Part shown: positions 33,815 through 60,883 of the stretch, in pieces
Position numbering within the stretch: the first letter of the stretch is position 1
Layout of the letters: every line of letters begins with the position of its first letter
Origin: a virus
IMG/VR virus record: IMGVR_UViG_3300028837_002527
Coordinates: 4,768 to 68,767 of that record
Strand: one strand, 5' to 3'
Length of the DNA: 64,000 nt
Position numbers and translations under genes: made by a program
Notes under the pieces: model-generated
Told to the model about the DNA's origin: nothing
The model's input: the letters and a program-made list of their open reading frames with translations, nothing else
The model's database searches: none

Positions 33815-36800
33815 ATGGCTGAAGAAATTTTTGGAACTAAATTGAGATATGTTGAAATGTTAAATCTTCAATGTCCAGCAAGTAAGATTTGTGAACTTGG
33901 TACAATGCTCAGAAAAGCGGAGAGACGTGTAGGTCCTCCAGTAACAGATATTGCTGCTTTGAAGTTAGTTGATGCAAATAATCGTTATGATGGCAAAGTA
34001 ATTATGGTAAAGAATCGTGGTTTTTACGTATTTGATGCTGAAAGCACTGAAACTGAAGATTTAGAAAGAATAGTAGCTCCTACTGTAGGAACTGGTCGTT
34101 GGCACGCTGCTGGTGGCCAAGAATCAGGTGGCGGAATTATTTGGGAACGTGGTGTTATTGATAAGGATATTGTAGATTCAGCAGGAGCTGTAGCTACTGA
34201 AGGAAATCGTTATCTTATTGGTGGTGTTGGTCTTAATGATTGGGCTGGACATAATTGGGATATTACAGAATACACTTCAGATGCTGAATGGATATTTACT
34301 GAACCAAGAGAAGGAATGGTAGTTCATATTGCAGACGAAGATAAAATTATGATTTACAATGGAACTAGTTGGACTGACTTTGGTTTAGTAGTTCAAATTA
34401 ATAGAAAAAATATTGCATGGGTTGATAAGGATGGAAGTGATACTACTGGACAAGTTGGTAGTTTTACTCGTCCATATTTAACTATTGGAGCAGCACTTAC
34501 TGCAATAACTACAGCAGCTGCAGATGATAGATTTGCAATTATTGTTGGTTCTGGTGAATATGCTGAAAATGTCGTGTGTAAACCATTTGTTGATTTATAT
34601 CTTGGTACAGCGAGAATTATTCCTGCTGCTGGAGATGGAATTAAATTTGATGATGACATGTCTGTTCATGATGGAATAGTTTCAGCAGCAGCTGGATATT
34701 GTTTTGATGTAACTGCTGTTGGTGTTACTTCTGCAAATTGTTACAATACTCAATATGCTGCTGGTAAAGTATTAAAAAGTGGTGGTGGAGCATTTGTTAA
34801 TTTTTACAATATTCAACCACTTCCAGGAGCAGCAATTGCTACCTTTGCTGATGTTGCTGGTGGAGCATTGGGTGGAATATTTTATGATTCACAACTTGAT
34901 GGTGCAGCAGGTACAGATGATGAAATTCAACTTTATGGTTGTTATTGCAATGGAGCTTGGACTACTACAGATACTATTATAGCTAATGCAACTACTTTTG
35001 TAGGAGCATTTAGTTTAACTACTCCTTCAGCTGCAAGTCATTTTCAAGGATGTAATTTTGTTGCAAGTCTTACTGCGCTTGAAGGTTCTGCAATATTTGA
35101 GGGTTGTCAAATAGGAACTTCAATTACTGTTAATCATGCAAATGCAGATATAATATTTAATGGTTGTTATGTAGGAACTACATATACTGTTACACTTGGA
35201 ATAGCGCAGTTTAATGGAGGCGGCATTAGTACAGATGTGTCTTTTGCGGGTACTAATGTAAATAGTTTTAATGGAGTTCGAGTTGGTGGAACTACCACTA
35301 TTCTTGAAGCAACACTTCACGCTGAAGGATGTAGATTTGTTGGAGCTTTTCTTGTAAATCATGCAAATGCAATATTTGTTGGAAATGGTAATAAATTTGA
35401 TGACACTTACACTGTTACACTTGGGGAAGCGACTTCAGATGGTTCTACAATAACTGGAGCAGTTTCTCTTGAAGGAACAAATGTAAATCGTTTTGGTGGC
35501 TGCACATTAGAAAGTTCTTTAACAATACTTGAAGCAACTGCAATAGCAACTGGTGGAAGCATTGAAGGAGCAGTAACAGTTAATCATGCTAATGCTGTGC
35601 TTGAAAGTTCTGGCTGTCATTTTGAGAGTACTTATACTATTACTCTTGGAACTGGAAATATTGAAGGCGGGAGAATTCAAGGAGCAACTTCAATAGCTGG
35701 AACTAATACTAATAGATTAACAAGTACGATGTTGGCAGCTGTTACAGTACTTGAAGCAACTGTAATTATTACTGGTAGTTCAATAACTGGTGCACTACTT
35801 GCAAATCATGCAAATGCTGTACTACGAGTTGAAGGTACAGATTTTGCAGGAACATTTACAGTTACATTGGGAGTTGCAACTGTAAATGGAGGTTTAATTG
35901 TAGGTGCAACTTCACTTGAAGGTACCAATGCTAACTTCTTTGAAGGTGTACGATTTGGTGATACTTTTACACTTCTTGAAGCTACTGCAAATCTTGCGGG
36001 ATGTTCAGTAGCAGGTGCTGTACTTGTAAATCATGCTGCTGCTATTTTAGTTGCTACTGGTAGTGATTTTCAAAATACTTTCACAGTTACACTTGGAGAA
36101 GCAACTGTTGATGGCACAATTATTTCTGGTGCAGTTTCCGTTGAAGGAACTAATACAAACCGACTTGCCGGATGTACACTCGAAGGTGCTTTGACAGTTC
36201 TTGAAGCAACTGTGATTTTAGCTGGAAGTTCAGTTGAAGGTGCAGTAGATACTAATCATGCAAGTGCAGTGTTATATGACATCGGTTCAATACTTGAGAG
36301 TACTCTAACTACTACACTTGGAGCAGCAGTTGTTTCAGGCGGAAGTATTAGAGGTGCAATTGATGTAGCCGCTGGTGCAATTGAGATGTCCAATGACACT
36401 GACTTGGGTGGTGCTATTACAGGTGCTCCTACTTATCTTGGAACTCCAATAAGAGATATTGGCGGAGTTGGGCTTACCTTTATTCGATTTACTGGTGTTC
36501 CACTTGCAAACGATACTTTTACTATTGATGGTAGAATTCACATGTTTGATGGTGGTGGAGACGTTCCTATTGTTCGTGTTCCGGGTAATGTGGATGGGAC
36601 ACTTGATAATGCAGTAACAGCTATTAATGCTGATGCAGCTGGTGTTGGTGTTACTTATGCAATTAAAGCTGCTGGTGCAGGAGCTGCTAACGGAGTTCTA
36701 ATAATTGTCCATGAGACTGTAGCGACTGACTTTGCTTTAGTTATTACTGTAAATGTTGGTGGATTTATGACTGCTAGTCACGCCAACGCAGTCGGTGATT

Positions 36801-37093
36801 TTGTAGCTGCTCGTCAAGACAATTATAAGTTCCGTCGTGTAATGGTTGCTCAGGACATTCTTGCTCTAGCAGCAGTTGAAGGTATTGTTCTTGGATGTGT
36901 ACCGTCAACTGTAGCACCAAGATATATTAACTTATTTGCGACAGATGCTGCTGGTGTTATTTTACCAATGGCAACTTATAGGATTAATGCTAATCAGGTT
37001 GGAGGTGCGTGGTATGAGATTGAACTTTTAGACCCACTTGGTGCGGCTCAGTTTGCTGCTGGTGACCTTGCATATGTTGAGGCCCAGGTCTAA
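33815..37093 (+). CDS. tail fibre/spike: DUF2793-like domain, beta-helix with 75-aa super-repeats, C-terminal paralog of 37127..37804
   Basis: EGNRYLIG...WAGH..DI.EY....W.FTEP.EG (DUF2793); PYLTIGAAL cap; VNHANA repeats every 225 nt. Confidence 0.75.
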   Translation: MAEEIFGTKLRYVEMLNLQCPASKICELGTMLRKAERRVGPPVTDIAALKLVDANNRYDGKVIMVKNRGFYVFDAESTETEDLERIVAPTVGTGRWHAAGGQESGGGIIWERGVIDKDIVDSAGAVATEGNRYLIGGVGLNDWAGHNWDITEYTSDAEWIFTEPREGMVVHIADEDKIMIYNGTSWTDFGLVVQINRKNIAWVDKDGSDTTGQVGSFTRPYLTIGAALTAITTAAADDRFAIIVGSGEYAENVVCKPFVDLYLGTARIIPAAGDGIKFDDDMSVHDGIVSAAAGYCFDVTAVGVTSANCYNTQYAAGKVLKSGGGAFVNFYNIQPLPGAAIATFADVAGGALGGIFYDSQLDGAAGTDDEIQLYGCYCNGAWTTTDTIIANATTFVGAFSLTTPSAASHFQGCNFVASLTALEGSAIFEGCQIGTSITVNHANADIIFNGCYVGTTYTVTLGIAQFNGGGISTDVSFAGTNVNSFNGVRVGGTTTILEATLHAEGCRFVGAFLVNHANAIFVGNGNKFDDTYTVTLGEATSDGSTITGAVSLEGTNVNRFGGCTLESSLTILEATAIATGGSIEGAVTVNHANAVLESSGCHFESTYTITLGTGNIEGGRIQGATSIAGTNTNRLTSTMLAAVTVLEATVIITGSSITGALLANHANAVLRVEGTDFAGTFTVTLGVATVNGGLIVGATSLEGTNANFFEGVRFGDTFTLLEATANLAGCSVAGAVLVNHAAAILVATGSDFQNTFTVTLGEATVDGTIISGAVSVEGTNTNRLAGCTLEGALTVLEATVILAGSSVEGAVDTNHASAVLYDIGSILESTLTTTLGAAVVSGGSIRGAIDVAAGAIEMSNDTDLGGAITGAPTYLGTPIRDIGGVGLTFIRFTGVPLANDTFTIDGRIHMFDGGGDVPIVRVPGNVDGTLDNAVTAINADAAGVGVTYAIKAAGAGAANGVLIIVHETVATDFALVITVNVGGFMTASHANAVGDFVAARQDNYKFRRVMVAQDILALAAVEGIVLGCVPSTVAPRYINLFATDAAGVILPMATYRINANQVGGAWYEIELLDPLGAAQFAAGDLAYVEAQV
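35129..36268 (+). repeat. six degenerate 225-nt (75-aa) coding repeats
   Basis: NHA codons at 35132, 35357, 35582, 35804, 36029, 36254. Confidence 0.8.
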
Positions 37094-37126
37094 TTCGTAA
37101 CTTTTAAGGAAAGGAAAGGAATAAAC

Positions 37127-37804
37127 ATGGCTGGACCAGTAGCAGACGTTCAGATTGACTCTGAACTCTCAAAAGACTTAGGTGGGATTGGAGTTGGATA
37201 TGTTTCTTTCTCCAAACAACCCGCAGCTAATGACATTATAACAGTCGGTGCAAGAGGTATTGAGTTTGATGGTGTTGGTGCTAATATTAATGTAGCCATT
37301 GGTGGAACTCTTGCCTTAACACTTGCAGCCGCTGTTGCTGCTATTAATGCAGATGGCACAATTCTTGCGGATGCTATCGTTGGAGCAAACGATGCTTGTT
37401 TGAACTTTGTTGCGCGGTCTCCAGGTACTGCAGGAAATCTTGGAATTGTCGATACTGTTGACAGTGGCGCAGCAATGATTTGTTCAGCCGCTCTTATGGT
37501 TGGTGGAAAAGCAACTGCAATTACGGAATCATATCGTGAATCCTATACAATAACTGCAATAGATGTACAAGAAATGGCGGCAGGAGCGCAGGATGCGGAA
37601 ATTTGCATTGCAGCTATTCCAAAAACTACTGCTCCTACTTCAACTCAAATAACAGTTTGGGATACAACGGGCTTAATACACCCGTTCGCAAGTCTGTTGT
37701 TTGTTTGGAGACAAATCAATGCTAATTATTATGGTTTGTTTCTGGAAGATAATGGACCTTTATTAGCCGCTGGCGACACAATAGAAATAATTGCAGCGTA
37801 TTAG
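37127..37804 (+). CDS. structural protein paralogous to the C-terminus of the upstream fibre
   Basis: LGGIGVGYVSFSKQPAANDIITVGARGIEFDG vs IGGVGLTFIRFTGVPLANDTFTIDGRIHMFDG; AAGD near both C-termini. Confidence 0.7.
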   Translation: MAGPVADVQIDSELSKDLGGIGVGYVSFSKQPAANDIITVGARGIEFDGVGANINVAIGGTLALTLAAAVAAINADGTILADAIVGANDACLNFVARSPGTAGNLGIVDTVDSGAAMICSAALMVGGKATAITESYRESYTITAIDVQEMAAGAQDAEICIAAIPKTTAPTSTQITVWDTTGLIHPFASLLFVWRQINANYYGLFLEDNGPLLAAGDTIEIIAAY

Positions 37805-37836
37805 TAAAATTAACGCATGAATGAAGGAGAATAGAT

Positions 37837-38244
37837 ATGGCATTTTCAGAAGAAGATAAAGAATTTTTAAGTGGAATATTTGTCAATCAAAAAAAAGACA
37901 TAACTAAAATTGCAGATGAAAGAGATAAAAAAATAAAAAAAGATGTTCAGGAAGTAGTAACGAAAGTTACTATAAAAGTGGATAAACTATGTGACAATTT
38001 TAAAGCACACAAGAAAGAAGCTTTTGAACGCGTGGCACAACATGATATACAAATTGCGCTAAATGAAAAATCAATTAATGGAAATAAAGAATTAGTTGAG
38101 TCAAAATTGGAACAAGGAGCAATTCAACTTAAGGAAATAAAAGATGTAAATAAAAGTTTATCCAATAGGATTTACTGGCTGATTGGATTAATAATAATGG
38201 CATTAATAATGTTAGCTGTTGCTCTTTTTGGAAAAATTTTATAA
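37837..38244 (+). CDS. coiled-coil protein with C-terminal TM (XhlA/holin-like)
   Basis: C-terminal IYWLIGLIIMALIMLAVALFG; end of structural operon. Confidence 0.6.
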   Translation: MAFSEEDKEFLSGIFVNQKKDITKIADERDKKIKKDVQEVVTKVTIKVDKLCDNFKAHKKEAFERVAQHDIQIALNEKSINGNKELVESKLEQGAIQLKEIKDVNKSLSNRIYWLIGLIIMALIMLAVALFGKIL

Positions 38245-49206: not shown

Positions 49207-49320
49207 TTTGTATGAAAGAAAAAAAAAAAAGAGATTGAAATTTAAAATTTTTTCTATAAAATATTATCATTCTATTTATAGGAGTCTAACACTTTTTTAC
49301 AGGAGTCAATGGAGGTGAGT

Positions 49321-50061
49321 ATGGTCAATCTACTGTTTGAAAAAATGAGTAAAAAACTAAGGAAATTTATTGAATATAATTCTTGGAAATTTTCAAATTT
49401 TTCAAGATATAATGATAAGTGTGATTTTGAAAATATTGCACTCATTGTGATTTGGGAGAAGATTCCAGATTTTAGGTATGTGTGTGGCATATGTGAGAAA
49501 AAGTTCAGAGAAGAAAAAGCGTATAGAAAGCATAAGCATAGTAAGTATCAGCAGGGAAAAAAGATTAAATTTAAAAAGCCAAAAATTATTTTAGAGTCGT
49601 ATCTCATGTCGCGAATTCTTTCAAAATATCAAGCAGTGTTGAAGGAAGAAAATGCTTTAAAAAGGTATCCAAGTAATAGGCAAGTTTTTCAAATGAACAA
49701 TTTAGACTCTACTTTTGAGATTAGTAACGAGAGTAATAACAAAGATTTTAATAGGTCTGTAAAAACTGATAAATTGGGGGGACGTCAAAATGCAGATGAT
49801 TTTAGGATTAATAGATTACATTTAAAATTTGATGAGCATGCAGAATATGACTTAATGGAAGTAATAGAGTTAGTGTCAAAGGACTTTACTGACACTGAAA
49901 TTGAGGTAATGAATATGTTGCTTAACAAGTATAGAATTTATCAGATTATTCTTGGTTTTGAAGAAAAGAACAGAGGAGATATTCATACTGTTAAAAAAGC
50001 TGTAAGAAACATTCGTAAGTACATAAAAACATATTTAGAAAAAATAGAGAATGTTGTATAA
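49321..50061 (+). CDS. putative sigma70-family (region 2 + region 4) factor with inserted C2H2-like zinc finger
   Basis: RBS GGAGGTG; ALIVIWEKIPDF / ESYLMSRI region-2-like; CGICEKKF...HKH; FTDTEIEVM...HTVKKAVRNIRK region-4-like. Confidence 0.5.
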   Translation: MVNLLFEKMSKKLRKFIEYNSWKFSNFSRYNDKCDFENIALIVIWEKIPDFRYVCGICEKKFREEKAYRKHKHSKYQQGKKIKFKKPKIILESYLMSRILSKYQAVLKEENALKRYPSNRQVFQMNNLDSTFEISNESNNKDFNRSVKTDKLGGRQNADDFRINRLHLKFDEHAEYDLMEVIELVSKDFTDTEIEVMNMLLNKYRIYQIILGFEEKNRGDIHTVKKAVRNIRKYIKTYLEKIENVV

Positions 50062-50152
50062 CTTTTTATATAGTATATCTATGATGATTCTTTGAAAGTA
50101 AGATTTTATTCAAGTTAAATCTGATATGATTTAAAGAGTTTGATAAGAAAAT

Positions 50153-50191
50153 CATTAAATCATACCAAGGAACATATTAAAGCTCCCCTAT
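50153..50191 (+). repeat. dispersed bipartite motif copy 4
   Basis: cattaaatcatacca-aggaacatatt-aaagctcccctat. Confidence 0.8.
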
Positions 50192-50294
50192 GGGCTTTTA
50201 AGGAGCTCCAGAGGAGCTGATTTTGAGTGAAAGGAGACATGGTTGTCTCATAAAAATTTTCGGTCCACAATTCAAAGGAATGGAGGTAAGTAAC

Positions 50295-51284
50295 ATGGAC
50301 ATGAAAGTACTCAAAAAAACAGCTAAAGATTTTGGAATTAAGGTCTTAAAAAAAGACGATGAGGAATCTTTAGCAGAGAAAATTCGGGGTTACTTTAGTG
50401 AGAAGGATTTTGAGCTTGATGCTCAATGTCCTGAGTGTGGAGAGGATATTCCAGACGAGGATATGTGTCCTTTTTGCGGGGTGTCTTTTGAGGATGAGGA
50501 TGAGGATGAGGATGAGGATGAGGATGAGGATGAGGATGAGGATGAGGATGAGGATGAGGATGACGAGGAAGATGAGGATGAGGATGAGGATGAGGATGAG
50601 GATGAGGATGAGGATGAGGATGAAAAACCTAAAAAGAAAAGAGGTAGACCTAAAAAAGAATCAAAAAAGACAGAAAAGGAAGGAAAGAAGAAAAAAGGGA
50701 AAACTGGAAGAAAAAAGGGTTCTCGTAGTTTGAAGTCAACAATTAAGAAAAAAGGAAAAGAGGCAAGAGGAGCAAAAAAAGGTTCTTTCAATTATAAGGA
50801 TGCAGTTGAAAAGGTATCCGATATTGTGGAAAAGGAAGGATATGAAATTAAGGAAAGAGCCAACTGGAATGGTTATTTCCTTGATGGGCTTAAAGTATTT
50901 CATGTAGCAAAATCTACAAGGTCGTTTCAACTGATGATTACAGTTGAAGGATTTGTTGCTCCAAAGAAAGGTGAATACAGAGAATTTACCAATGAAGAAA
51001 TTACAAGTGGACACTTAGCTACTTGTATTGGAATTCTAAAAACAACAAGTCTTGACGTTGTTGAATCTGCGGTTGCACAGTTAACAAAAATTGCTAAAAA
51101 GATTCTTAAGGAAAGGAAGGAAGAAAAGAAAGAAAAGAAAGAATCAAAAAAGAAGTCAAAGAAAAAAGATACAGAAAAAAAGAAGTCAAAGAAAAAAGAT
51201 ACAGAAAAAAAGAAGTCAAAGAAAAAAGATACAGAAAAAAAGAAGTCAAAGAAAAAAGATACAGAAAAAAAAGAAGGATATTAA
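50295..51284 (+). CDS. nucleoid-like protein: zinc ribbon, poly-(ED), AT-hook, basic repeats
   Basis: RBS GGAGGT; CPECG..CPFCG; (ED)n; KKRGRPKK; KKKSKKKDTE x4. Confidence 0.8.
   Translation: MDMKVLKKTAKDFGIKVLKKDDEESLAEKIRGYFSEKDFELDAQCPECGEDIPDEDMCPFCGVSFEDEDEDEDEDEDEDEDEDEDEDEDDEEDEDEDEDEDEDEDEDEDEKPKKKRGRPKKESKKTEKEGKKKKGKTGRKKGSRSLKSTIKKKGKEARGAKKGSFNYKDAVEKVSDIVEKEGYEIKERANWNGYFLDGLKVFHVAKSTRSFQLMITVEGFVAPKKGEYREFTNEEITSGHLATCIGILKTTSLDVVESAVAQLTKIAKKILKERKEEKKEKKESKKKSKKKDTEKKKSKKKDTEKKKSKKKDTEKKKSKKKDTEKKEGY
50490..50621 (+). repeat. (GAGGAT)n coding microsatellite
   Basis: About 22 hexamer units, one GACGAGGAA interruption. Confidence 0.95.
51151..51270 (+). repeat. 4 x 30-nt perfect tandem repeat
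   Basis: AGAAGTCAAAGAAAAAAGATACAGAAAAAA x4. Confidence 0.95.
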
Positions 51285-51344: not shown

Positions 51345-51375
51345 AAGGACCATTAAATAAATGGTCCTTTTTTTA
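51345..51375 (+). terminator. intrinsic terminator
   Basis: AAGGACCATT-AAATA-AATGGTCCTT followed by T-tract. Confidence 0.85.
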
Positions 51376-51434: not shown

Positions 51435-52784
51435 ATGAAAGAAAATATTATTTTAGGAGGAGGTATCTCCGGTTTAATTTTTCAATTTTATAATCCTGAA
51501 TTTTTATTAATAACTGATTCGTTTGGCGGTATGCTTGAAAATGAAAAAGATTTTGGTGTAATGACATTGTGGGATACAAAAACAACAAGGCAATTACTCA
51601 CTGACCTTGAAATAGAAATAAAACCAAAACATTCAGATATTCATTATTATTTTAATGGAAAAATTTATAAGGAAGCTCCTTCTCTGTTAAGAGAAGAGCA
51701 CATAAGAAAAAAAATGGGACCATTAAGTTCTCTTATTGATTTTAAGGATTTGACTCTTTCTACAGATAAAACGAACTATATTCCATCTCTTAAAGTTGAT
51801 TTTATTGAATTGTTGAAAAAGTTACGTAATAAATTAAATAGACATATTGTAGGAAGAGTTACTAAAATAAATGATGAATATGTGATAGTTAATATAGGAG
51901 AAGAAAACAAACTTGATTATCATACACACATGTTTAAGTATAATGCATTAATCTCTACATTACCTGCTTTTGTTTTTTGGGATATATGGAATGGTAAAAA
52001 TTGCAAAGAAATATGTAACTTAGATGAATTTAATTATACATCAACTACAAATATATCAATGAAAAAGCTTGAAGGCAAATTGAAATCAAAGTTAATAGAT
52101 TCAGGATGTTTGTCAGAAAATTTTCAACATTATGTTTATTTTATGGATGATAGTCCATATCATAGATTATCTCGCACAACATCTGGAAAATATTGTATTC
52201 AATTTCCTGGTGAATATTCCATTGAAAAAGTAAGTAAAATTTTAGATATTCCTATTAGTAAATTAAAAATAAGAATTAACAAAATAGGACAATTTGTTTC
52301 TCATAAAGGGAACATACCTCCAGATAATATTATGTTTCTTGGCAGACATGCTCAATGGGATTATAAAATTAAAGTTCAAGATATAGTTAGATTTTCTATG
52401 TTTTCAAAGTTCATGTGGCATCGTATGAGACAAGTACAAACAAGATTTAATAAAAATTTTATAAAGTTTAATGAAATTACATTTGAAGAAAGACAAAGGA
52501 AAACAGAGAAGTGGTTGCTTCATTTATTTAGTGAAGTAAATGAATTTCTCAATGAAATAAATTGGAAAATGCACAGAACTCATAAAGAAGTATTTAGACA
52601 GAAAATAATTGAAGAATGGATTGATATATTTAAATTTTTATTGGGATTAGCAGATGTCTGGGGAATAACTTCTTTAGAAATTTTCAATATGTTTATGGAA
52701 AAAAGTAAAATAGTAGAACAAAAATATTATAAAGAAATGGAGGAAAAAGATGAAGGAGTTTCAAGAGAAGAAAGTTCTAAATAA
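51435..52784 (+). CDS. FAD-dependent oxidoreductase fused to all-alpha (dimeric dUTPase/MazG-like) NTP pyrophosphatase
   Basis: IILGGGISG Rossmann motif, LISTLP, FLGRHAQW; C-terminal HLFSEVNEFLNEINWKMH...EEWIDIFKF. Confidence 0.8.
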   Translation: MKENIILGGGISGLIFQFYNPEFLLITDSFGGMLENEKDFGVMTLWDTKTTRQLLTDLEIEIKPKHSDIHYYFNGKIYKEAPSLLREEHIRKKMGPLSSLIDFKDLTLSTDKTNYIPSLKVDFIELLKKLRNKLNRHIVGRVTKINDEYVIVNIGEENKLDYHTHMFKYNALISTLPAFVFWDIWNGKNCKEICNLDEFNYTSTTNISMKKLEGKLKSKLIDSGCLSENFQHYVYFMDDSPYHRLSRTTSGKYCIQFPGEYSIEKVSKILDIPISKLKIRINKIGQFVSHKGNIPPDNIMFLGRHAQWDYKIKVQDIVRFSMFSKFMWHRMRQVQTRFNKNFIKFNEITFEERQRKTEKWLLHLFSEVNEFLNEINWKMHRTHKEVFRQKIIEEWIDIFKFLLGLADVWGITSLEIFNMFMEKSKIVEQKYYKEMEEKDEGVSREESSK

Positions 52785-53679
52785 AGTTTGTTTTGGAGAA
52801 AAACCAGCTTTTGGAATTAAAGATGCAGTTACAAGTATTTCTGTTGAGTTAGTAGATTATCCAGAAGAAAGTTCTTTATATAGTACTATGTTTCAATTTA
52901 TTATGGGTTCTTATGGGAATGAACCAAATAAATTAATAGAATACGTCCCAAGTGATGAGGAGATAGAAGAAGTAGTTGAGGCGTCATTGAAAGGAGAAGC
53001 ATTACCATTAGCGATGGAAATTCCAAAGTTTACATTTCGAGTTAATGGAATTGATAGAATTATAACACATCAAATTGTAAGAAGCAGAATTGGAGTTGTT
53101 TATTCGCAGCATTGTACTGGTGATAATGATATTAGGCATGTTAATTATCTTATACCACATGCAATAGCGAAGTTAAGAAAGAAAAGTCCAGCATGGAATG
53201 AAAGAATAGGTAAATTTTTAGTAGAATCTAAAGAGATTTATGCTGATTTGATTGATAAAGAAAATATAAGTATTCAGGATGCAAGAGGATTTATTTTACC
53301 TCTTATGGAAACTTACATTTATATGAGTTGTAATTATATGATGATAAGAAATTTTGTAGCAAGAAGATTATGTGCAAATGAAACACATCAAATGCAGTTT
53401 ATTGCACATTCAATGAGGGAATTAATAAGAATTAGGTTTCCTTTACTTGGTAAGTATTTACAAGGCACTTGTGATAAAATAAAAAAATGTGTGTTTAAAA
53501 AAAATGATTCGATATTTGCTGGTTCTGTTTATTATCCATGTGGAAAATATCCGAGATTTGATAATGAAGGAAAAGAAATACCAGTCGACCCAGAAAAATT
53601 TATACACAAAGAACCTTCAAGTTCTATGAGGGGAATACAATCAGTTGCAGAAAAATATAAGGAGGATTTAGCATTATGA
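52750..53679 (+). CDS. thyX: divergent flavin-dependent thymidylate synthase (ThyX-like)
   Basis: FTFRVNGIDRIITHQIVRSR...YSQHC, QDARGFILP, FVARRLC; canonical RHR and catalytic Ser altered. Confidence 0.75.
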   Translation: MKEFQEKKVLNKVCFGEKPAFGIKDAVTSISVELVDYPEESSLYSTMFQFIMGSYGNEPNKLIEYVPSDEEIEEVVEASLKGEALPLAMEIPKFTFRVNGIDRIITHQIVRSRIGVVYSQHCTGDNDIRHVNYLIPHAIAKLRKKSPAWNERIGKFLVESKEIYADLIDKENISIQDARGFILPLMETYIYMSCNYMMIRNFVARRLCANETHQMQFIAHSMRELIRIRFPLLGKYLQGTCDKIKKCVFKKNDSIFAGSVYYPCGKYPRFDNEGKEIPVDPEKFIHKEPSSSMRGIQSVAEKYKEDLAL

Positions 53680-54236
53680 TAATAGCTGTTGAAGGTCCTG
53701 ATTGTTGTGGAAAAACAACATTTGGAAATGAGTTAAGTAAAATATTAGATATACCAATTTTAAAATTGAAACAATTTGCTATATGCAAAAAAAGAAGTGA
53801 GACAAAATGTTGGGCACAAGTATCTTCAATGGAAAATTTTTCGCATAAGTTAAATTTTATATTGGATAGATTTTTGTTAACTAATTTAGTATATAACCAA
53901 ATTTATTATAATATAAAGTCATGTAAAAGATATTTCAATTTAATTGAAAAAATGGATGTTATTATTATAATGATAAGTGTATCATTTAAAGAATTAAGAG
54001 AAAAAATAAAGGAGCGAAAAGACAATAAAGATGTAATGAAAGATATTAAACAAATACATCTTATTTACAATATGTGGTATCAGAAAATTAAAGAAAAATA
54101 TAAATATCAAGATAGAATAATTTTACTAAATGGATTTCAACCTATGAAAGACATGTTATGGGAATTAGTTAATAAAAAAGAGTGTTCATTTTGGATAAAA
54201 AGTAAGATTTCTCCATGGTTAGAGAAATATTTGTAA
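53676..54236 (+). CDS. dNMP (thymidylate-like) kinase
   Basis: IIAVEGPDCCGKTT, ILDRF..TNLVY. Confidence 0.85.
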   Translation: MIIAVEGPDCCGKTTFGNELSKILDIPILKLKQFAICKKRSETKCWAQVSSMENFSHKLNFILDRFLLTNLVYNQIYYNIKSCKRYFNLIEKMDVIIIMISVSFKELREKIKERKDNKDVMKDIKQIHLIYNMWYQKIKEKYKYQDRIILLNGFQPMKDMLWELVNKKECSFWIKSKISPWLEKYL

Positions 54237-54245
54237 GAGGATAAA

Positions 54246-55298
54246 ATGAAAAAATATACAAAACAAAAATTTAAAAAGTTGTTTCCTTGGTTTTATGCAA
54301 TAGAAAAAGGATTAAAAGCGCCAATTTCTTTTTTCCTATTGCCAACTGATAAATGTTTTTGTAAGTGTAATATGTGCACTCATTGGAAAATGAAAGAAAA
54401 AAAAGAACTTGATTATGAAACTGTAAAGTCAATATTAGTTGAAGCTCAGAAAAATGGAAGTCAATCTGTTTCACTTTCAGGTGGAGATATATTTGCATGG
54501 AAACATGTTGAGAGATTATTTTGTGATAAAAGTATTACATTAGATTTTCAAGTAACTACTCCATTAATTTTTCCTATTAAATTTGATTTATCTTTGTTAA
54601 AAAGGATAAAATGGTTACGTATATCTTTTGATGCAATTGATAACAATACATACAAAGAAATAAGAGGAGTAAATAAAGTACATAGAGTTATAGAGAATAT
54701 TAGAAATATAATTAATAATAATTTAATTAAGGATATAGGAATTGCAACAGTACTTCAAAAGAAAAATTTAAATCAAATAGATGTTTTAGCTGACTTTATT
54801 AAATCTTATGAAATAAAAAGATGGATAGTTCATCCAGTTGATTTTAATCCTGATTTAAGTTTAGATACACAAACTATACATGATGTTTTTAGATATTTAG
54901 TTGAAAAATATAGTAAGAGTATTCCTATAAATAACTGGGATGTTTATTTGAAAGAAAATAATGAATATGAAAAGGCGAATGATTTACCATGTTACATTGC
55001 AAAAATGAAAGCATTTATTGATGCAAGTCTTCGTATATGGCCTTGTTGTAATTTAGCAATGGACTCAAGAGGCGATGAAGAAAGGGCGGAACATTTAATG
55101 ATGGGTAGATTAAAACCTGGAAGATATGCAGGATTAAGATTTATTAAGATATGGCAAAATAAAAGAAATTATTTAGATAAATTTAATAGTTTTAAAGACA
55201 TTCATCCTTTATGTAAAAGTAATTGTAGATTTAAATATTTTTATTACAATCTTGGTTATCATTATTGTAAACAAAGATTGAGCACAATATATCTTTAG
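54246..55298 (+). CDS. radical SAM protein with SPASM/twitch domain
   Basis: CFCKCNMC (CxxxCxxC), SGGD, RISFDA, C-terminal PC...WPCC...C..NC. Confidence 0.88.
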   Translation: MKKYTKQKFKKLFPWFYAIEKGLKAPISFFLLPTDKCFCKCNMCTHWKMKEKKELDYETVKSILVEAQKNGSQSVSLSGGDIFAWKHVERLFCDKSITLDFQVTTPLIFPIKFDLSLLKRIKWLRISFDAIDNNTYKEIRGVNKVHRVIENIRNIINNNLIKDIGIATVLQKKNLNQIDVLADFIKSYEIKRWIVHPVDFNPDLSLDTQTIHDVFRYLVEKYSKSIPINNWDVYLKENNEYEKANDLPCYIAKMKAFIDASLRIWPCCNLAMDSRGDEERAEHLMMGRLKPGRYAGLRFIKIWQNKRNYLDKFNSFKDIHPLCKSNCRFKYFYYNLGYHYCKQRLSTIYL

Positions 55299-55308
55299 GA
55301 GTAAGTGT

Positions 55309-58300
55309 ATGAGTTTAAATTTACCAAATGCTTTTCCTAAAAAGTTAGATTTAACTCCACCAAAATATAAAAAGGAAAAGAAAACATATGTTCCAATTCA
55401 TGTTCATTCATCGTTTTCAACATATGATGGATGTTCTACTATAAAGGAATTAGTAGAAGTTGCAGACAGTCTTGGTATGCATGCAATTTCTTTGTCAGAC
55501 CACGGAACAATGAGTGGAGTGTTTTCTTTTGTTCAAGAGTGTAAAGAAAGAAAGATAAAACCAATTGTTGGATGTGAATTATATATTAATGAAAACAGAC
55601 GTGCAGAAAAGAAAGATGCTTCAAATGAACATTTATGTTTATTTGCTATGGATATAAGGGGGTATAAAAATTTATTAAAAATTATGTATGATGCTGCTAC
55701 AAATGGATTTTATTATCGTCCAAGAACTGATTTAAATTTTATAGAAGAAAATTCTAAAGGACTTATTTGTACAACTGCTTGTTTAAGTTCACCAATAATA
55801 AAACCAAGTCTTGAAGGAAATGATGAGAAAGCAATAAAGAATTTAAAAAAGTTAAAGAGAATATTTGATGATAGATTGTATATAGAGTTTAATTTTAATG
55901 AAATGGATGTGCAAAAAGAGGCTAATAGCAAATTAAAAAAATTAGCAAAAAAGTATAGAGTTAAAGGTGTTTATGGACTTGATGTTCATTATACATATAA
56001 GGAAGATGTTTGGGTTCAAGATATTTTAAAGTTAAATCAGAGAAAGACAACAATACATGATTCAAATTGGAAGGATTATGTATTTTCAGCTAGAAGATTA
56101 TTTTTAAAGCCATATAAAATTGCTTTAAAGGAGCCAAAATTATTAGGATACGATGATTTTAATTTAAAATATGTTGAGTCGTTACTTGAAGCAACGAATG
56201 AAATAGCGGATAGAGTAAACTTTGATTTAGAATTTGGAGTGCACGCACCTTATTACACTTATAAAGGAAAAAGAGTAAACGCAAAAAAGTTTTTAAAGAC
56301 ATTAATAAATAGATTTTTTATGAAAAAAATAGAACAGAAAATTATTTCAAAAGATAAAAAACAAATTTACAAAAAAAGGATGGAATACGAATACAATTTA
56401 ATAGTTGAATGCAAATATTGTAATTATTTTCTTATTATTTGGGATATGGTAAAAAATTCAAGAAACAAAGGAATTTTTAGAGGAATTGGGAGAGGTTCTG
56501 CGGCTGGTTGTTTAATATCCTTTTTGTTAGATATTACTGGTGTTGACCCAATAAAATATGGTTTACTGTTTGAGAGGTTTATGGATATTCAGAGGAAGGA
56601 CCCACCAGATATTGATTTAGACTGGGAGCATGAACGCGGCGAAGAAATTGAAGATTATTTAAGGAAGAAATATGGTGAAAAGAAAGTAGCGCATGTATGC
56701 ACATATTCTTGGTGGAGAACTAAATCTTCCATTGGAGAAGTGTTTAAAACAACAGGAGAGAAGATAGAAGATATATTTAAATTAAAAAAGATGATTAGGT
56801 TTGATGAGGGAGATAACAGAGATAGCAAAAATGTCGATGCTGCATTAAAGTATGTAAGAGAAAATTTTAATGATAAAACAGTAATGGATATGTTAAATAG
56901 GCAGAAAAAGATTGGAATTCCTATTGTAAAGAGATTGGTTAATAACATTAAAAATGTAGGAATGCATCCTGGTGGAGTAGTAGTTTCTCCTAAACCTATT
57001 TTTAATTATATACCAGTTGTTCGACATAAAGACAATATATTGACTGGATTTTCTCAAGGTAGCGATGGAAGAACAGAACTTGAGTGGATTGGATTAATAA
57101 AGATTGATAATTTAAGAGTTAAAGCAGTAACTGTAGTAAAAGAAACATTGAGGTTAATAAAAGAACGACGAGGTATAGATTTATTTGAAGGAATATGGAA
57201 TATTAATGTAGAAGAAAAAGAAGTTTATAAGTATTATCAAGAAGGAAAAACAGAGGGGGTATTTCAAGTAGAATCAGAAGAAATAAATGCATTTATGAAG
57301 AGGTTGAAACCAGAATGTTTTGATGATTTAAGAGCAATTGTAGCGTTATTTAGACCTGGTTCTTTAGCATCTGGTGAAGCAGATAAATTTATAAAGAGGA
57401 AACATGACGAGGAAAAAGTTTTGTATGTTCATCCGATATTAAAAAAGTATGTTGGTAGCACATATGGATGTTTTGTTTATCAAGAACAAATAATGAACAT
57501 AATGAACGAGTTATGCGGGTTTCCGCGGAGTAAAACTATGAGATACATGAAATTAATGAAAAAGGTGTATGATACGAGTGATAAAAGAATAATTGGTGTT
57601 GTTAATAAAATGAAGAAAGGATTGATAAAACTTTCTAAATTTACAAAAGAACAAGCTGATAAGTTATGCGATGTAATGTTAGAAAGTTATAATTATATTT
57701 TTAATAAATCTCATTCAACATCGTATGCTTTGTTTTCATATCAGATGATGTGGTTAAAATATCATTATCCTTTGGAATTCTTTTGTGCATTATTATCAAA
57801 GACAGAAAACAAAAGAACTGAACATAAGGGTGGAAAAATAGATATTAAAATAAAGAAATATATTAGTGGTGCAAAAAAAATTGGTATCAATGTTTTACCT
57901 CCTAAATTTGGTAAGTCTCAACAAGAATTTATAATTGAAAATGATAATGTTCTTCGTGCGGGTACTAATGTTGTTGTTGGATTAGGTAAGTCTGGTGATG
58001 AATTATATAAAGTCAAATCAAGAAAAAATGGAAAGTATTATATTGAAGATATGGTTGAGTGTAAAGATATTAGTTGGGCAAGGTTAAATAAGAGAAAAGT
58101 TGAAACGTTAATTAGCATAGGGTTTTTTGATGGTTGTGTTAAAGTGATTAAAAAAGTGACAAACAAACAATTAATGTATGCTTGGAAAAAGTTTAATGAA
58201 AGAAAAAAGAAGAAAGGAGATGTTAAATTATTTATAGAGTGTTTAAGGGAATCTATAAAGGAAGTTGAAGGAAAGTTTAAAAAGAGAGAGCAGATAGCAT

Positions 58301-58767
58301 TTCAAATTCAAGCATTTCGTTTTTTCTTTTCAAAGCACCCATTAGATTCTAAAAGATTAAGAAAAGTTATAGAACGATATAATAATGATGTGAGCAAAAG
58401 CACATTAAAAATAAAAGATGTAAATTCAATGAATAAATCAAAAAATAATAGAGGTACTATTATAGGATATATTAATGAGATAAGAATTACAAAGCCCAGA
58501 AGAGGGCCATCTGCTGGTGAGAAAATGGCTATTGTTGGAATTGAGGATTCAAAGGATAAAGCAAAAATATTAATTTGGCCTGAGTTTTATTCAATAGACA
58601 GGTATAAAAAGATATTAGTTGAGGGAAATATAGGTATTTTTAGGGTTAAAAGAAAATATAGCAATGATGAGGATGAATCAAGTACTTGGGAATTATTGAG
58701 TGTTGGTAATAGAGCGCATTTAATATCTGATAAAGATTTAAAGAAAATAGTAAGTAAAAGAGGTTGA
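55309..58767 (+). CDS. dnaE: DNA polymerase III alpha subunit
   Basis: PHP HVHSSFS..DG, SDHG, GRGSAAG, PDIDLD, HPGG, YQEQIM, FNKSH, C-terminal OB fold. Confidence 0.95.
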   Translation: MSLNLPNAFPKKLDLTPPKYKKEKKTYVPIHVHSSFSTYDGCSTIKELVEVADSLGMHAISLSDHGTMSGVFSFVQECKERKIKPIVGCELYINENRRAEKKDASNEHLCLFAMDIRGYKNLLKIMYDAATNGFYYRPRTDLNFIEENSKGLICTTACLSSPIIKPSLEGNDEKAIKNLKKLKRIFDDRLYIEFNFNEMDVQKEANSKLKKLAKKYRVKGVYGLDVHYTYKEDVWVQDILKLNQRKTTIHDSNWKDYVFSARRLFLKPYKIALKEPKLLGYDDFNLKYVESLLEATNEIADRVNFDLEFGVHAPYYTYKGKRVNAKKFLKTLINRFFMKKIEQKIISKDKKQIYKKRMEYEYNLIVECKYCNYFLIIWDMVKNSRNKGIFRGIGRGSAAGCLISFLLDITGVDPIKYGLLFERFMDIQRKDPPDIDLDWEHERGEEIEDYLRKKYGEKKVAHVCTYSWWRTKSSIGEVFKTTGEKIEDIFKLKKMIRFDEGDNRDSKNVDAALKYVRENFNDKTVMDMLNRQKKIGIPIVKRLVNNIKNVGMHPGGVVVSPKPIFNYIPVVRHKDNILTGFSQGSDGRTELEWIGLIKIDNLRVKAVTVVKETLRLIKERRGIDLFEGIWNINVEEKEVYKYYQEGKTEGVFQVESEEINAFMKRLKPECFDDLRAIVALFRPGSLASGEADKFIKRKHDEEKVLYVHPILKKYVGSTYGCFVYQEQIMNIMNELCGFPRSKTMRYMKLMKKVYDTSDKRIIGVVNKMKKGLIKLSKFTKEQADKLCDVMLESYNYIFNKSHSTSYALFSYQMMWLKYHYPLEFFCALLSKTENKRTEHKGGKIDIKIKKYISGAKKIGINVLPPKFGKSQQEFIIENDNVLRAGTNVVVGLGKSGDELYKVKSRKNGKYYIEDMVECKDISWARLNKRKVETLISIGFFDGCVKVIKKVTNKQLMYAWKKFNERKKKKGDVKLFIECLRESIKEVEGKFKKREQIAFQIQAFRFFFSKHPLDSKRLRKVIERYNNDVSKSTLKIKDVNSMNKSKNNRGTIIGYINEIRITKPRRGPSAGEKMAIVGIEDSKDKAKILIWPEFYSIDRYKKILVEGNIGIFRVKRKYSNDEDESSTWELLSVGNRAHLISDKDLKKIVSKRG

Positions 58768-58768
58768 T

Positions 58769-59311
58769 ATGAGAAAATTAAAATGGAGAGATAAGCCATA
58801 TAAGACATTTCGTAAAGATATTGAGGATTTAAAAGTACGTATTGCATATAAGAAATTAAGAAATAAATTGTCATTAAAATCACATCGTGAAAGTGACGAA
58901 GCGTTAATTGAAGCAAACGATTCAAGTGCTGAAGATTATTCTTTAGCATCTGATTTATTTTTAATTGCTAAAGATGAATACGATAAGTTTGCAACATATT
59001 ATGAAATAGAGATGTCAAGGTTAAATTTTTTGGCACAAAGTAAATTAGAGAAGAAAAAAAAGAAGAAAGAATTATCCTCACAAATAACTAAGGATTTAAA
59101 AAAGGATTGGATAATAAAAAATCGTACAGAAGAATACGAATATTTAGAAAGAAAAAAAAGAGAATTGAAAACAATAATGAATCGTATGGAGATTATAAAA
59201 GAGAGTTGGAAACAACGTATGTCGAGTTTACAGTCACAGGCAAGGGCTGTAGAATTCCGAAGACAAAGATTAGGAGGAAAGAAAATTGGTAGAGAGGAAA
59301 AAGATAATTAA
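58769..59311 (+). CDS. UvsY-like coiled-coil recombination mediator
   Basis: Helical; ESWKQRMSSLQS C-terminal motif; neighbours SSB and RecA. Confidence 0.45.
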   Translation: MRKLKWRDKPYKTFRKDIEDLKVRIAYKKLRNKLSLKSHRESDEALIEANDSSAEDYSLASDLFLIAKDEYDKFATYYEIEMSRLNFLAQSKLEKKKKKKELSSQITKDLKKDWIIKNRTEEYEYLERKKRELKTIMNRMEIIKESWKQRMSSLQSQARAVEFRRQRLGGKKIGREEKDN

Positions 59312-59516
59312 GAAAAAGAAATTTGAAGTAAATAATGATGTAATTGATGCAACTCAAAGGTCAAACGAAATATTTCATAAGTCACAATCTTCGTGTACTA
59401 TTAAAAGAGATAGTAAAGGTTCTGTTAATCTTGAAGTGAAAGTATATGATGATTCTGCGGAAGAAGCAGTAAGAAGAGCTATATTTGAATTTAAAAAATT
59501 AACTAAAAAGATTTAA
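59286..59516 (+). CDS. hypothetical protein
   Basis: SSCTIKRDSKGSVNLEVKVY; RBS AGGAGG before TTG. Confidence 0.6.
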   Translation: MVERKKIIKKKKFEVNNDVIDATQRSNEIFHKSQSSCTIKRDSKGSVNLEVKVYDDSAEEAVRRAIFEFKKLTKKI

Positions 59517-59530
59517 CTAAAGGAGTAAAA

Positions 59531-60883
59531 ATGCCAAAAACAAAAGAAAAGAAAAAGAAGAAAAAAAAATCTTCAAGTGGAATGGGAAGTAGAGATTTTG
59601 TGAAAGATACTAAGTCAAGGAGAGGTGATATTGTAATGTGGAAGGAAGATGGAAAGATAGTTGTATTCGTTCATCCAGTTGGATTTTTTCCTCGTCGAAT
59701 TTATTGGCTTGATGTTATTGTTGAAGAGGAAGAAGGAAAAGGTGAACCGAAGAAAGTGAAGAAAAAGGTGGTGAGAATTAATTTTGTGTGTCCAGGAATT
59801 AAAAAAGGGTGTCCAATTTGCGAATTGAGAGAACATTTAAAAGAAAACGAAGATATTGAAGACGACGAAGTTATTTATCGTATTGGTAAAGGTAAAAAGG
59901 GAGTTGAGATTACTAAAGGTGATATGTTAAATATTAAGGGTTACGATTGGAAGTTATCATGGGTACCAAGTAAAGAATATTTATGTGGAATTGTTGATGT
60001 TGATAATGTTGAAGCTGGTGTTAATACATTTATTGCTGCAGCAGGATTAGGTAATAAAATTGCTTTGTGCATAGAAGAAAGACAGGATGAAAAGGGAAAA
60101 AGAAAAGGTGACCCATTAAAAAATCCATGGGCAATGAAGTTTCAGTATAAACCAAAAGCAAAATCTCCTGTTGATAAGTATTTATGTTTTTACAATGATG
60201 CAGAATTAACTGATGAAATTAAAGAGTTGCTTGAAGGTGATGCACCAGATTTTTTCGGGTTAATTGCACCGGCTGACCCTGTAGAAATTTGGGATGCAAT
60301 TAAGGATGGTATTGAAATTGACTTTTCTCCTTCGTGTGAAGAAGAAACAAAGAAAAAGTCAAAGAAAAAGAAAAGTAAGAAGAGTAAGAAAGATGAGGAT
60401 GAGGATGAGGATGAGGATGAGGATGAGGATGAGGATGAGGATGAGGATGAGGATGAGGATGACGATGAGGATGACGATGACGATGAGGATGAGGATGAGG
60501 ATGAGGATGAGGATGAGGATGAGGATGAGGATGAGAATGACGATGAGGATGAGGATGAGGATGAGGATGAGGATGAGGATGACGAGGAAGATGAGGATGA
60601 GGATGACGAGGAAACTGATACATGTCCAAAGTGTGGTAAGAAGGTTGCTTTATCCGCAAAGAAGTGTCCTTACTGTAAAGTGGAATTTGTAATTGATGAT
60701 GATGACGACGAAGAGGAAGATGATGATGACGAAGAGGAGGAAAAGTCAAAAAAGAAAAAGAGAGGTAGACCAAAAAAAGAATCATCTAAATTTAAAAAAG
60801 GTGAAGTAAAATGTTCTCATTGTAAAGCAAAAGTTCCAGTTAATAAAAAGAGGTGCCCTTCTTGCGGTGAAAAATTAAAGTAG
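59531..60883 (+). CDS. gp32-like single-stranded DNA-binding protein with poly-(ED), zinc ribbons and AT-hook
   Basis: C.G....CPICE, YLCGIVD, GDP; acidic tract; CPKC..CPYC; KRGRPKK; CSHC..CPSC. Confidence 0.6.
   Translation: MPKTKEKKKKKKKSSSGMGSRDFVKDTKSRRGDIVMWKEDGKIVVFVHPVGFFPRRIYWLDVIVEEEEGKGEPKKVKKKVVRINFVCPGIKKGCPICELREHLKENEDIEDDEVIYRIGKGKKGVEITKGDMLNIKGYDWKLSWVPSKEYLCGIVDVDNVEAGVNTFIAAAGLGNKIALCIEERQDEKGKRKGDPLKNPWAMKFQYKPKAKSPVDKYLCFYNDAELTDEIKELLEGDAPDFFGLIAPADPVEIWDAIKDGIEIDFSPSCEEETKKKSKKKKSKKSKKDEDEDEDEDEDEDEDEDEDEDEDDDEDDDDDEDEDEDEDEDEDEDEDENDDEDEDEDEDEDEDDEEDEDEDDEETDTCPKCGKKVALSAKKCPYCKVEFVIDDDDDEEEDDDDEEEEKSKKKKRGRPKKESSKFKKGEVKCSHCKAKVPVNKKRCPSCGEKLK
60392..60613 (+). repeat. 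(GAGGAT)n coding microsatellite, second locus
   Basis: About 220 nt hexamer tract with GAC/AAT interruptions. Confidence 0.95.

Follow-up and report, generated by a model that had tools for sequence, protein, structure and literature searches.

Phages of the T4 and SPO1 type replace a canonical base at the level of the nucleotide pool, using a ThyA-family hydroxymethylase, a dNTP pyrophosphatase, a dedicated kinase, and a phage polymerase. Hypermodification in phages M6, ViI, and PaMx11 is, according to the accessible part of its description, post-replicative, acts on ThyA-made 5-hydroxymethyldeoxyuridine in DNA, and needs a ThyA-type hydroxymethylase with an amino-acid:DNA transferase; M6 encodes a radical S-adenosylmethionine (SAM) protein resembling spore photoproduct lyase (gp53) next to a kinase (gp54), and gp47 of PaMx11 is a flavin adenine dinucleotide (FAD) enzyme (PMC8989533). 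Within the ThyX family, the accessible parts of two reports describe Ser88 and Tyr91 as critical residues under strict conservation, Arg90 as a conserved one (PMC11940539, PMC8316439), and Arg174 as activating N3 of uracil (PMC8316439). PolB, a ThyX-family C5-methylase of UMP and dUMP in polyoxin biosynthesis, has altered substrate loops (PDB 4p5b) and shows that the ThyX fold can accept another nucleotide. Here, we report a five-gene module in a 64,000-nucleotide stretch (the window; bases 4768 to 68767 of the 68,767-base IMG/VR virus record IMGVR_UViG_3300028837_002527, here G000; CheckV completeness, 43%), consisting of a flavoprotein-dUTPase fusion (P0001), a ThyX-family protein with a rebuilt active-site loop (P0002), a Tmk-like kinase (P0004), a radical SAM enzyme (P0003), and a DnaE polymerase. 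It is a nucleotide-precursor module with an undescribed enzyme set. Our tentative reading is that it forms a pool-level pyrimidine-precursor line inside the replication module and that its product would be a 5-substituted deoxyuridine monophosphate (dUMP) other than thymidine monophosphate (dTMP).

As in the T4 and SPO1 logic, a pyrophosphatase, a C5 one-carbon transferase, a kinase, and a polymerase are encoded together here; unlike there, the transferase belongs to the ThyX family and not the ThyA family, and a flavoprotein and a radical SAM enzyme are added. With the hypermodification systems, as far as the accessible part of their description goes, the module shares a P-loop kinase, a radical SAM enzyme, an FAD enzyme, and the adjacency of kinase and radical SAM genes; it differs from M6 in that P0003 is MoaA-, viperin-, and SPASM-like, not spore-photoproduct-lyase-like, and in that the kinase is Tmk-like. 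An initial annotation, made from the sequence alone, had drawn an analogy to thymidine hypermodification. The analogy is loose: the kinds of enzyme are shared, but those systems are described, in the same accessible part, as acting on DNA after replication from ThyA-type products, while no match to the ThyA family (PF00303) was found in the 68,767-base, 43%-complete record. The same annotation did not recognize the enzyme combination as a characterized pathway, and we likewise found no description of it in the searchable literature (supplements were outside scope). Its gene identities (flavoprotein-dUTPase fusion, ThyX, kinase, radical SAM, DnaE) all hold by profile or fold matches.

P0002 (309 amino acids) matches Pfam Thy1 (PF02511) at 68.6 bits (cut-off, 24.8) and falls below the cut-off of the thyX equivalog TIGR02170 (37.9 versus 87.9 bits). 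Its structural model (predicted local distance difference test [pLDDT], 91.3) has ThyX structures as best fold matches (TM0449 and M. tuberculosis ThyX; Foldseek E, 1e-11 to 1e-9; template modeling [TM] score by target, 0.64 to 0.78). Residue equivalences come from profile alignments of P0002 with the ThyX of M. tuberculosis and with a ThyX chain of T. maritima and are given in T. maritima numbering. The loop contains the string RSRIGVVYSQHC (residues 111 to 122), in which the hidden Markov model (HMM) alignments to both enzymes place S112 at the His of RHR and C122 at the motif Ser. The RHRx7S signature is unmet, as it reads RSR, eight residues, and Cys, with one residue extra between RxR and the Ser position; the His-to-Ser and Ser-to-Cys changes are thus present as first annotated.

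Five positions are kept (Q75 as Q108, R78 as R111, R80 as R113, R147 as R179, and R174 as R206) and five are changed (H53 to I91, H79 to S112, S88 to C122, R90 to G124, and Y91 to D125). We take Q75, R78, R80, and R147 to have roles in the nucleotide site, and H53 and H79 of the T. maritima enzyme presumably stack on folate and contact FAD, respectively. Judged by alignment, P0002 keeps the positions that hold and activate the nucleotide, and those of methylene transfer are replaced. Given the kept residues and the role of R174, we infer that a uracil nucleotide is still the likely substrate; because the nucleotide-holding and -activating equivalents are all kept, plain dTMP stays possible as the product.

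The changes are not decay, since the stretch Y-S-Q-H-C-T-G-D-N-D-x-R-H is kept in all ten close relatives retrieved from 5.8 billion protein clusters, with variation only of C/G and H/R/N. Throughout the alignment of P0002 with these relatives (n = 11), C208, C241, C247, and C264 are invariant and could hold zinc or an iron-sulfur cluster; the canonical ThyX copies of two related loci (L048 and L049) lack all four. P0002 further differs from canonical ThyX by a C-terminal extension of ∼70 residues. Its highest TM score by query among the listed matches is to PolB (0.58; root mean square deviation, 3.0; 242 columns), from which it is set apart by 13% identity, by a PolB match to the family profile (E, 2.5e-7) that covers only the C-terminal half, and by origin, PolB coming from a bacterial antibiotic pathway and P0002 from a phage replication module. 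Among isolated phages, P0002 found distant ThyX genes only (≤30% identity), and neither P0001 nor P0003 had a tblastn match in 50,697 GenBank phage records; blastn of the whole region against isolated phages gave short DnaE matches only.

P0001 (449 amino acids) carries an all-alpha dUTPase_2 domain (PF08761; 26.5 bits; cut-off, 22.9; residues 328 to 436), and its model is all-helical from residue 314 to 448, as in dimeric all-alpha dUTPases. Acidic E-x-x-E and E-x-x-D patterns, which we take to be metal ligands, are visible in the domain in a 12-sequence alignment of the P0001 family. Residues ∼1 to 320 match no family in Pfam (including Amino_oxidase and GLF), PHROG, or NCBIfam. They start with a GGGISG dinucleotide-binding motif, invariant in 12 of 12 sequences, and their modeled fold (pLDDT, 79) resembles those of L-amino-acid oxidase, UGM, protoporphyrinogen oxidase, monoamine oxidase, and renalase (Foldseek E, 4e-14 to 1e-9). 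A PDB profile match to A. fumigatus UGM is weak (E, 0.14) and includes a GR-x3-W-x-Y stretch. ESM Atlas fold matches reach TM scores of 0.76 to 0.80, and the three nearest clusters there are unnamed proteins of ∼300 amino acids that are 95 to 100% viral. On the strength of the model, the N-terminal domain is a virus-specific family within the amine-oxidase/UGM-type fold. It shares with UGM, amine oxidases, and renalase the GxGxxG start and two-domain FAD fold and differs from them in its size of only ∼320 residues, its fusion to a dUTPase, and its lack of a Pfam family match. Complex prediction for P0001 residues 1 to 320 with the ThyX-like protein, run without controls, scored 0.00 against a mark of 0.32, a value that speaks neither for binding nor against it.

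Related loci were collected with pattern scans seeded by the ThyX-like family (37 viral and 7 metagenome loci) and with scans seeded by a 31-sequence radical SAM alignment (34 more viral loci). Copies of the window and of L001 (L003 and L004) were omitted, and 79 loci were analyzed (L001, L002, and L005 to L081). Open reading frames (ORFs) were grouped by BLAST. The flavoprotein domain was traced with an HMM iterated for four rounds, which proved specific, with one match per locus (56 of 4,385 ORFs) and, in the window's record, P0001 alone. Since such an HMM can drift, its weakest matches (E, 1e-21 to 1e-28) are less sure. A ThyX-family ORF was present in 65 of the 79 loci and the flavoprotein in 53, with both in 52. 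L057, which is cut by a contig end, was the sole flavoprotein locus among the 14 without a retained ThyX-family ORF (L012 is counted with these, its ThyX-family gene having been lost to the ORF overlap filter), and the 13 ThyX loci lacking the flavoprotein were mostly short or cut. The two genes were adjacent in 22 loci and within two genes of each other in 29. This pair forms the conserved core of the module in a large group of uncultivated phages.

Fusion of the flavoprotein to dUTPase_2 occurred in eight loci; elsewhere, dUTPase_2 stood alone or was fused to an NT5C/HAD nucleotidase. Six loci encode dUTPase_2 within a protein of ∼313 to 329 amino acids (L002:11249-12205, L048:5487-6461, L049, L057, L022, and L029); the fusion partner is an NT5C-type 5'-deoxynucleotidase in L002, and the other five are similar by length. 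Such a fusion could take a dNTP to the nucleoside and would suit removal of a canonical nucleotide.

The flavoprotein accompanied all ThyX loop types, RHR forms included (L050, L053, L075, L080, and L002). Among the 35 loci with the radical SAM gene, 22 had a ThyX-family gene, 24 a DnaE longer than 600 amino acids, 22 the flavoprotein, and 13 a Tmk-like kinase, which adjoined the radical SAM gene in 8. Co-occurrence, which the initial annotation had offered as its own touchstone, was thus borne out, as flavoprotein and radical SAM genes do accompany ThyX-family genes in related phages. Neither gene marks a special pathway confined to the window, given that both also accompany ThyX forms that are the sole thymidylate synthase (TS)-family gene of complete genomes.

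An alignment of 71 distinct Thy1-family proteins from the window and its relatives put the loop changes in proportion. Equivalents of Q75, R78, R80, R147, and R174 were kept in 68 to 70 of the 71 and C208, C241, and C247 in most. H53, H79, S88, R90, and Y91 occurred together only in two short second copies (L048 and L049); among the remaining proteins, the H53 equivalent was missing from all but that of L077 and the Y91 equivalent from all. The Ser88 position was Ala, Gly, or Cys across the phage clade (Ala in the radical SAM-linked group) and Ser in the group adjoining DnaE. This variation makes the Ser-to-Cys change, on which the initial annotation had laid stress, a weak signal that carries little weight alone. 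Loss of the Arg90 equivalent was peculiar to the window's group (Gly; Ala in L077), and Asp at the Tyr91 position, with a D/N-x-D-x-R-H stretch in most members, reached a wider 27-row clade. A quick maximum-likelihood tree (70 rows, midpoint root; the truncated protein of L047 and P0009, L001's own protein, left out) placed the 21 Arg90-lacking proteins on one branch with a Shimodaira-Hasegawa-like approximate likelihood ratio test (SH-aLRT) support of 88. Support was 95 for the 23-row group that adds L048 and L049 and 99 for the 27-row group that adds L007, L008, L009, and L011.

Whole records were searched for Thy1 and ThyA families, and eight genomes represented the 23-row subclade. A second TS-family gene was present in five of these eight (versus 0 of 27 outside) and was of three kinds. 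G002 (L048; 57% complete) and G003 (L049; 100% complete) encode a fully canonical ThyX of ∼234 amino acids directly after DnaE (L048:14893-15594 and L049:14578-15279), in addition to a divergent Thy1 copy of ∼350 amino acids with an R-A-R loop and a Cys-rich tail that adjoins the radical SAM gene (L048:9434-10477 and L049:9173-10228). G001 (L001; 78% complete) has two ThyA-like paralogues 730 bases apart (L082:3799-4551 and L082:5281-5991). Right after its ThyX-like gene, G007 (L006; 77% complete) has a ThyA-like gene of 170 amino acids, and G006 (L077; 88% complete) has a HhH-GPD plus ThyA-like fusion. No second TS-family gene was found in G000 (the window; 43% complete), G008 (L005; 18% complete), or G011 (L010; 66% complete), and homologues of the ThyA-like genes of G001 were absent from the sequenced part of G000. 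Outside the subclade, all 27 genomes, nine of them at least 90% complete, had exactly one Thy1 gene and no ThyA-like gene; G036, with a locus truncated within the radical SAM gene, was set aside (single Thy1 match; E, 2e-53; 242-amino-acid frame).

That second genes of three kinds occur within one clade speaks against the divergent copy covering the need for dTMP there, and the presence of these genes fits a changed function of the ThyX-like protein. One of the G001 paralogues, P0183, keeps the catalytic Cys (PPC), the RSxD motif, and the Asn of L. casei TS; direct comparison shows Asp at the position of that Asn in the other, P0184. This exchange presumably marks cytosine-specific members such as dCMP hydroxymethylase, so that P0184 hints at cytosine modification in the phage of G001. 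The G006 fusion (L083:1473-2366, minus strand; 297 amino acids) joins a HhH-GPD DNA-glycosylase domain to a ThyA-like C-terminal part, and we know of no described protein with this architecture.

P0004 matches the PHROG family annotated as thymidylate kinase (phrog_761; E, 6.7e-18) and is ∼30% identical to annotated phage Tmk genes, with scores under the curated cut-offs of PF02223 (21.8 versus 27) and TIGR00041 (25.2 versus 83.25). DnaE has PHP, polymerase-core, finger, and HhH domains (phrog_405; E, 2.4e-250). The initial annotation had described the pathway as coupled to DnaE; what is seen is synteny within the replication module and not a demonstrated functional coupling. In G007, a family B DNA polymerase takes the place of DnaE after the ThyX-like/ThyA-like pair (L084:2726-4501), so the module is not tied to DnaE; an SDR epimerase/dehydratase precedes the pair.

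P0003 matches PF04055 at 42.3 bits (cut-off, 29.5), and C37, C41, and C44 of its CX3CX2C core are invariant in 31 of 31 sequences. Toward the C terminus, C249, C267, and C327 are invariant and C268 and C323 nearly so; these Cys residues probably hold an auxiliary cluster. A radical SAM/SPASM enzyme had been proposed initially. The PF04055 match, the CX3CX2C core, and the conserved C-terminal Cys residues agree with this, and no Pfam SPASM domain was found at an E value of ≤0.01. All 23 NCBIfam matches lie far under their cut-offs (e.g., 42 bits versus 231 or 380). The nearest named relatives are MoaA, the tungsten-cofactor oxidoreductase maturase, viperin, SuiB, SkfB, and also ScmE/F, and the nearest PDB sequences are SuiB, viperin-like enzymes, SkfB, and MoaA; QueE, spore photoproduct lyase, and NrdG were not prominent among the NCBIfam matches. 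P0003 thus resembles MoaA, viperin, and twitch/SPASM enzymes in its core and C-terminal Cys set and is unlike every named radical SAM family in scoring far below the cut-off. Only 7 of 1.84 billion representatives reached an E value of 1e-30, and two genome-contig scans (seeded with P0036 and with alignment A3) returned no cellular relatives.

Two other views of this gene were dropped. It seemed confined to the window's close kin while the first seven homologues were in hand (only L001 among the ThyX-derived loci had it), and the 34 viral loci of the profile scan overturned this. A role as an NrdG-type activase or ribonucleotide reductase substitute was rejected for want of any pattern of reductase genes: NrdD was absent from G000 and from four of five relative records checked, a class I/II-type reductase gene occurs in the closest relative (G001), and neither type is present in G003 and G004, which are complete. 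Kinase, UDG-family, and DnaE genes accompanied the radical SAM gene just as often as ThyX did. A UDG-superfamily gene follows the radical SAM gene in L001 (12623-13285) and L068 (10352-10960) and, with the same family, in L069 to L071, L079, and L081; L068 to L071 and L079 have a kinase-radical SAM-UDG trio with no ThyX or DnaE nearby. The UDG proteins cluster by BLAST with the DnaE family, which points to a UDG domain fused to DnaE in some cases. The gene immediately ahead of the radical SAM gene encodes an FkbM-type SAM methyltransferase in five loci (family F22; e.g., L055:7217-8005) and an aldo-keto reductase in L048 (6984-7997).

In the line that we tentatively prefer, the all-alpha dUTPase domain would turn dUTP into dUMP, P0002 would put a one-carbon unit on C5 of dUMP together with the dUTPase-fused flavoprotein, the Tmk-like kinase would phosphorylate the product to the diphosphate, and the phage DnaE would take the resulting triphosphate. 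5-Hydroxymethyl-dUMP, or another product that results from trapping of the exocyclic methylene, would be one candidate. With the ThyX His residues lost, flavin reduction or hand-over might fall to the flavoprotein, and the radical SAM enzyme would act on the nucleotide to add a step or change one. That the substrate is free dUMP, and that the line works at pool level, is indicated by the flavoprotein-dUTPase fusion, the Tmk-like kinase, and the kept nucleotide residues, and the near-obligate pairing of flavoprotein and ThyX suggests that the former serves the latter. The rebuilt loop (Cys, Gly, Asp, and N-D-x-R-H), taken with the second TS genes of the subclade, makes a product other than dTMP somewhat likelier than dTMP itself. 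The initial annotation had arrived at a noncanonical pyrimidine nucleotide made at pool level. That view gains from the gene identities, the loop, the co-occurrence, and the second TS genes, and the kept nucleotide residues leave dTMP open.

Ordinary dTMP made by unusual machinery (dUTP to dUMP to dTMP to dTDP) is a serious contender, and one that we consider quite possible. The phage-type ThyX, having lost the usual His, Ser, and Tyr residues, would then rely on the partner flavoprotein to reduce or hand over flavin and possibly on the four-Cys site, and the radical SAM enzyme would have another role in nucleotide or replication metabolism. The kept Arg and Gln positions of the nucleotide site speak for it, as do the flavoprotein's presence with every loop type and the fact that dUTPase, TS, and Tmk are a common phage gene set. 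The noncanonical ThyX is, moreover, the sole TS-family gene in all 27 genomes outside the subclade, which suggests that such a ThyX can serve as TS; yet phages with only a divergent ThyX may take dTMP from the host, and a sole TS gene is no proof of activity. Nor does this explanation account for the loss of the Arg90 equivalent in the window's subclade, for the other TS-family genes of most relatives there (with dTMP supplied by the divergent copy, these, including the canonical ThyX of G002 and G003, would be superfluous), or for the conservation of a radical SAM gene that sits between the kinase and polymerase genes. Several observations nonetheless weigh against a product other than dTMP. 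The Ser88 and Tyr91 losses are clade-wide, extend to sole-TS forms of complete genomes, and alone are no proof of a new product. The Arg90-lacking group has a support of only 88 in a quick tree, and its association with second TS genes may partly reflect shared ancestry. Three of the eight subclade genomes show no second TS gene, and the window's own record, at 43% completeness, is among them, so that the ThyX-like protein may be this phage's sole TS. The radical SAM family occurs with no nearby ThyX-family gene in 13 of 35 loci. Finally, the ThyA-like genes of the relatives, and not the ThyX-like protein, could be the modifying enzymes there; this fails for G002 and G003, where the second copy is an ordinary ThyX.

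Two further explanations seem improbable. The ThyX-like protein might act on uracil in a polymer (DNA or tRNA) or in a di- or triphosphate, with the loop replacing the Ser88/Arg90/Tyr91 site. Replacement of the R90 and Y91 equivalents next to retained R147 and R174 equivalents is consistent with this, the HhH-GPD/ThyA-like fusion beside the ThyX-like gene of L077 and the UDG-family genes beside the radical SAM gene point the same way, and flavin-dependent RNA uracil methylases, TrmFO and RlmFO, exist according to the accessible parts of PMC8989533 and PMC5954106. The flavoprotein-dUTPase fusion and adjacent Tmk-like kinase point instead to free nucleotides, and a Pfam scan detected no nucleic-acid-binding domain in P0002. 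Still less probable is a radical SAM enzyme that works as a protein maturase on Cys residues of the ThyX-like or another phage protein. The SPASM/twitch maturases among its nearest named relatives (SuiB, SkfB, the tungsten-cofactor maturase, and ScmE/F) and the conserved Cys residues of the phage ThyX clade would suit it; P0003, however, matches the nucleotide-acting MoaA and viperin equally well, lacks a nearby ThyX-family ORF in the 13 loci above, adjoins a Tmk-like kinase in 8, and the Cys residues are also conserved in ThyX of loci with no radical SAM gene (the DnaE-adjoining group, L013 to L039).

Should the flavoprotein and the ThyX-like protein work together as proposed, no earlier ThyX-family system would have had an obligatory flavoprotein partner, possibly along with a metal site, and no earlier ThyX-family route would have led to a non-thymine base in phage DNA. 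The module would extend the known chemistry of flavin-dependent C5 transfer to uracil, add a new radical SAM family to nucleotide metabolism, and define an environmental phage clade whose DNA may resist restriction enzymes and sequencing-based modification detection. That a large group of uncultivated DnaE-type phages makes a pyrimidine nucleotide other than dTMP at pool level, and so puts an undescribed thymine replacement into its DNA, with no ThyA-type enzyme and by means of an unrecognized flavin system of a four-Cys noncanonical ThyX, a dedicated UGM/amine-oxidase-fold flavoprotein, and often the new radical SAM family, is a bolder proposal that we find possible and rather doubtful. Even if dTMP is made, ThyX residues called strictly conserved are dispensable or replaced in a large viral clade, which bears on the ThyX mechanism and on inhibitor design.

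Family scans of window ORFs covered chiefly 38 to 64 kb. The layout described initially, a terminator followed by five tightly coupled genes, agrees in coordinates, junctions, and hairpin (Table 1): the five ORFs overlap or almost abut (-35, -4, +9, and +10 nucleotides), and the hairpin sits between the upstream ORF and position 51435. Terminator-like sites numbered six between positions 50900 and 59700, against 1.5 ± 1.2 in shuffles. By gene content on both sides, the module is embedded in a replication module, with a DEAD/ResIII helicase, a DnaC-like loader, DnaB, a primase, and an AAA ATPase upstream and RecA, a Mre11-like phosphoesterase, and a Rad50-like ATPase downstream.

Table 1. Features of the five-gene module and its borders (positions in the window)
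Feature	Position	Strand	Remarks
Terminator-like hairpin	51345-51369	+	Closes upstream gene; 10-bp stem, 5-nucleotide loop, T-run
P0001, flavoprotein-dUTPase fusion (whole ORF)	51435-52784	+	
P0001, N-terminal flavoprotein domain	51435-52394	+	Residues ∼1-320; GGGISG; amine-oxidase/UGM/renalase-like fold
P0001, C-terminal all-alpha dUTPase_2 domain	52416-52742	+	Residues 328-436; PF08761
P0002, ThyX-family protein	52750-53679	+	Pfam Thy1; rebuilt active-site loop, residues 106-130
P0004, Tmk-like P-loop nucleotide kinase	53676-54236	+	phrog_761 match
P0003, radical SAM enzyme	54246-55298	+	PF04055; CX3CX2C, residues 37-44
DnaE-type DNA polymerase III alpha subunit	55309-58767	+	PHP, DNA_pol3_alpha, finger, and HHH_6 domains
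180-amino-acid protein	58769-59311	+	Starts 1 nucleotide past DnaE; no Pfam, PHROG, or NCBIfam match

In a phage group with ThyX downstream of DnaE, the gene just ahead of DnaE encodes a small DUF1599 protein ("nucleotide modification associated domain 1"; family F11, 10 loci; e.g., L013:2658-2966 and L002:12202-12507); none was found in the window's record. Homologues of the 180-amino-acid protein follow DnaE in L001, L048, and L049. It is one of four flanking proteins of unclear family (window positions 49309-51284 and 58769-60883), the others being a 250-amino-acid protein with a C2H2-like finger, an acidic protein of 353 amino acids, and a 450-amino-acid protein with zinc ribbons; all four occupy the same places in L001, L048, L049, and L057. 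The window has a G+C content of ∼30%, with nearly all genes on the plus strand, and peaks at 0.45 (positions 30001 to 32000) and 0.41 (positions 36001 to 38000) versus ∼0.30 elsewhere.

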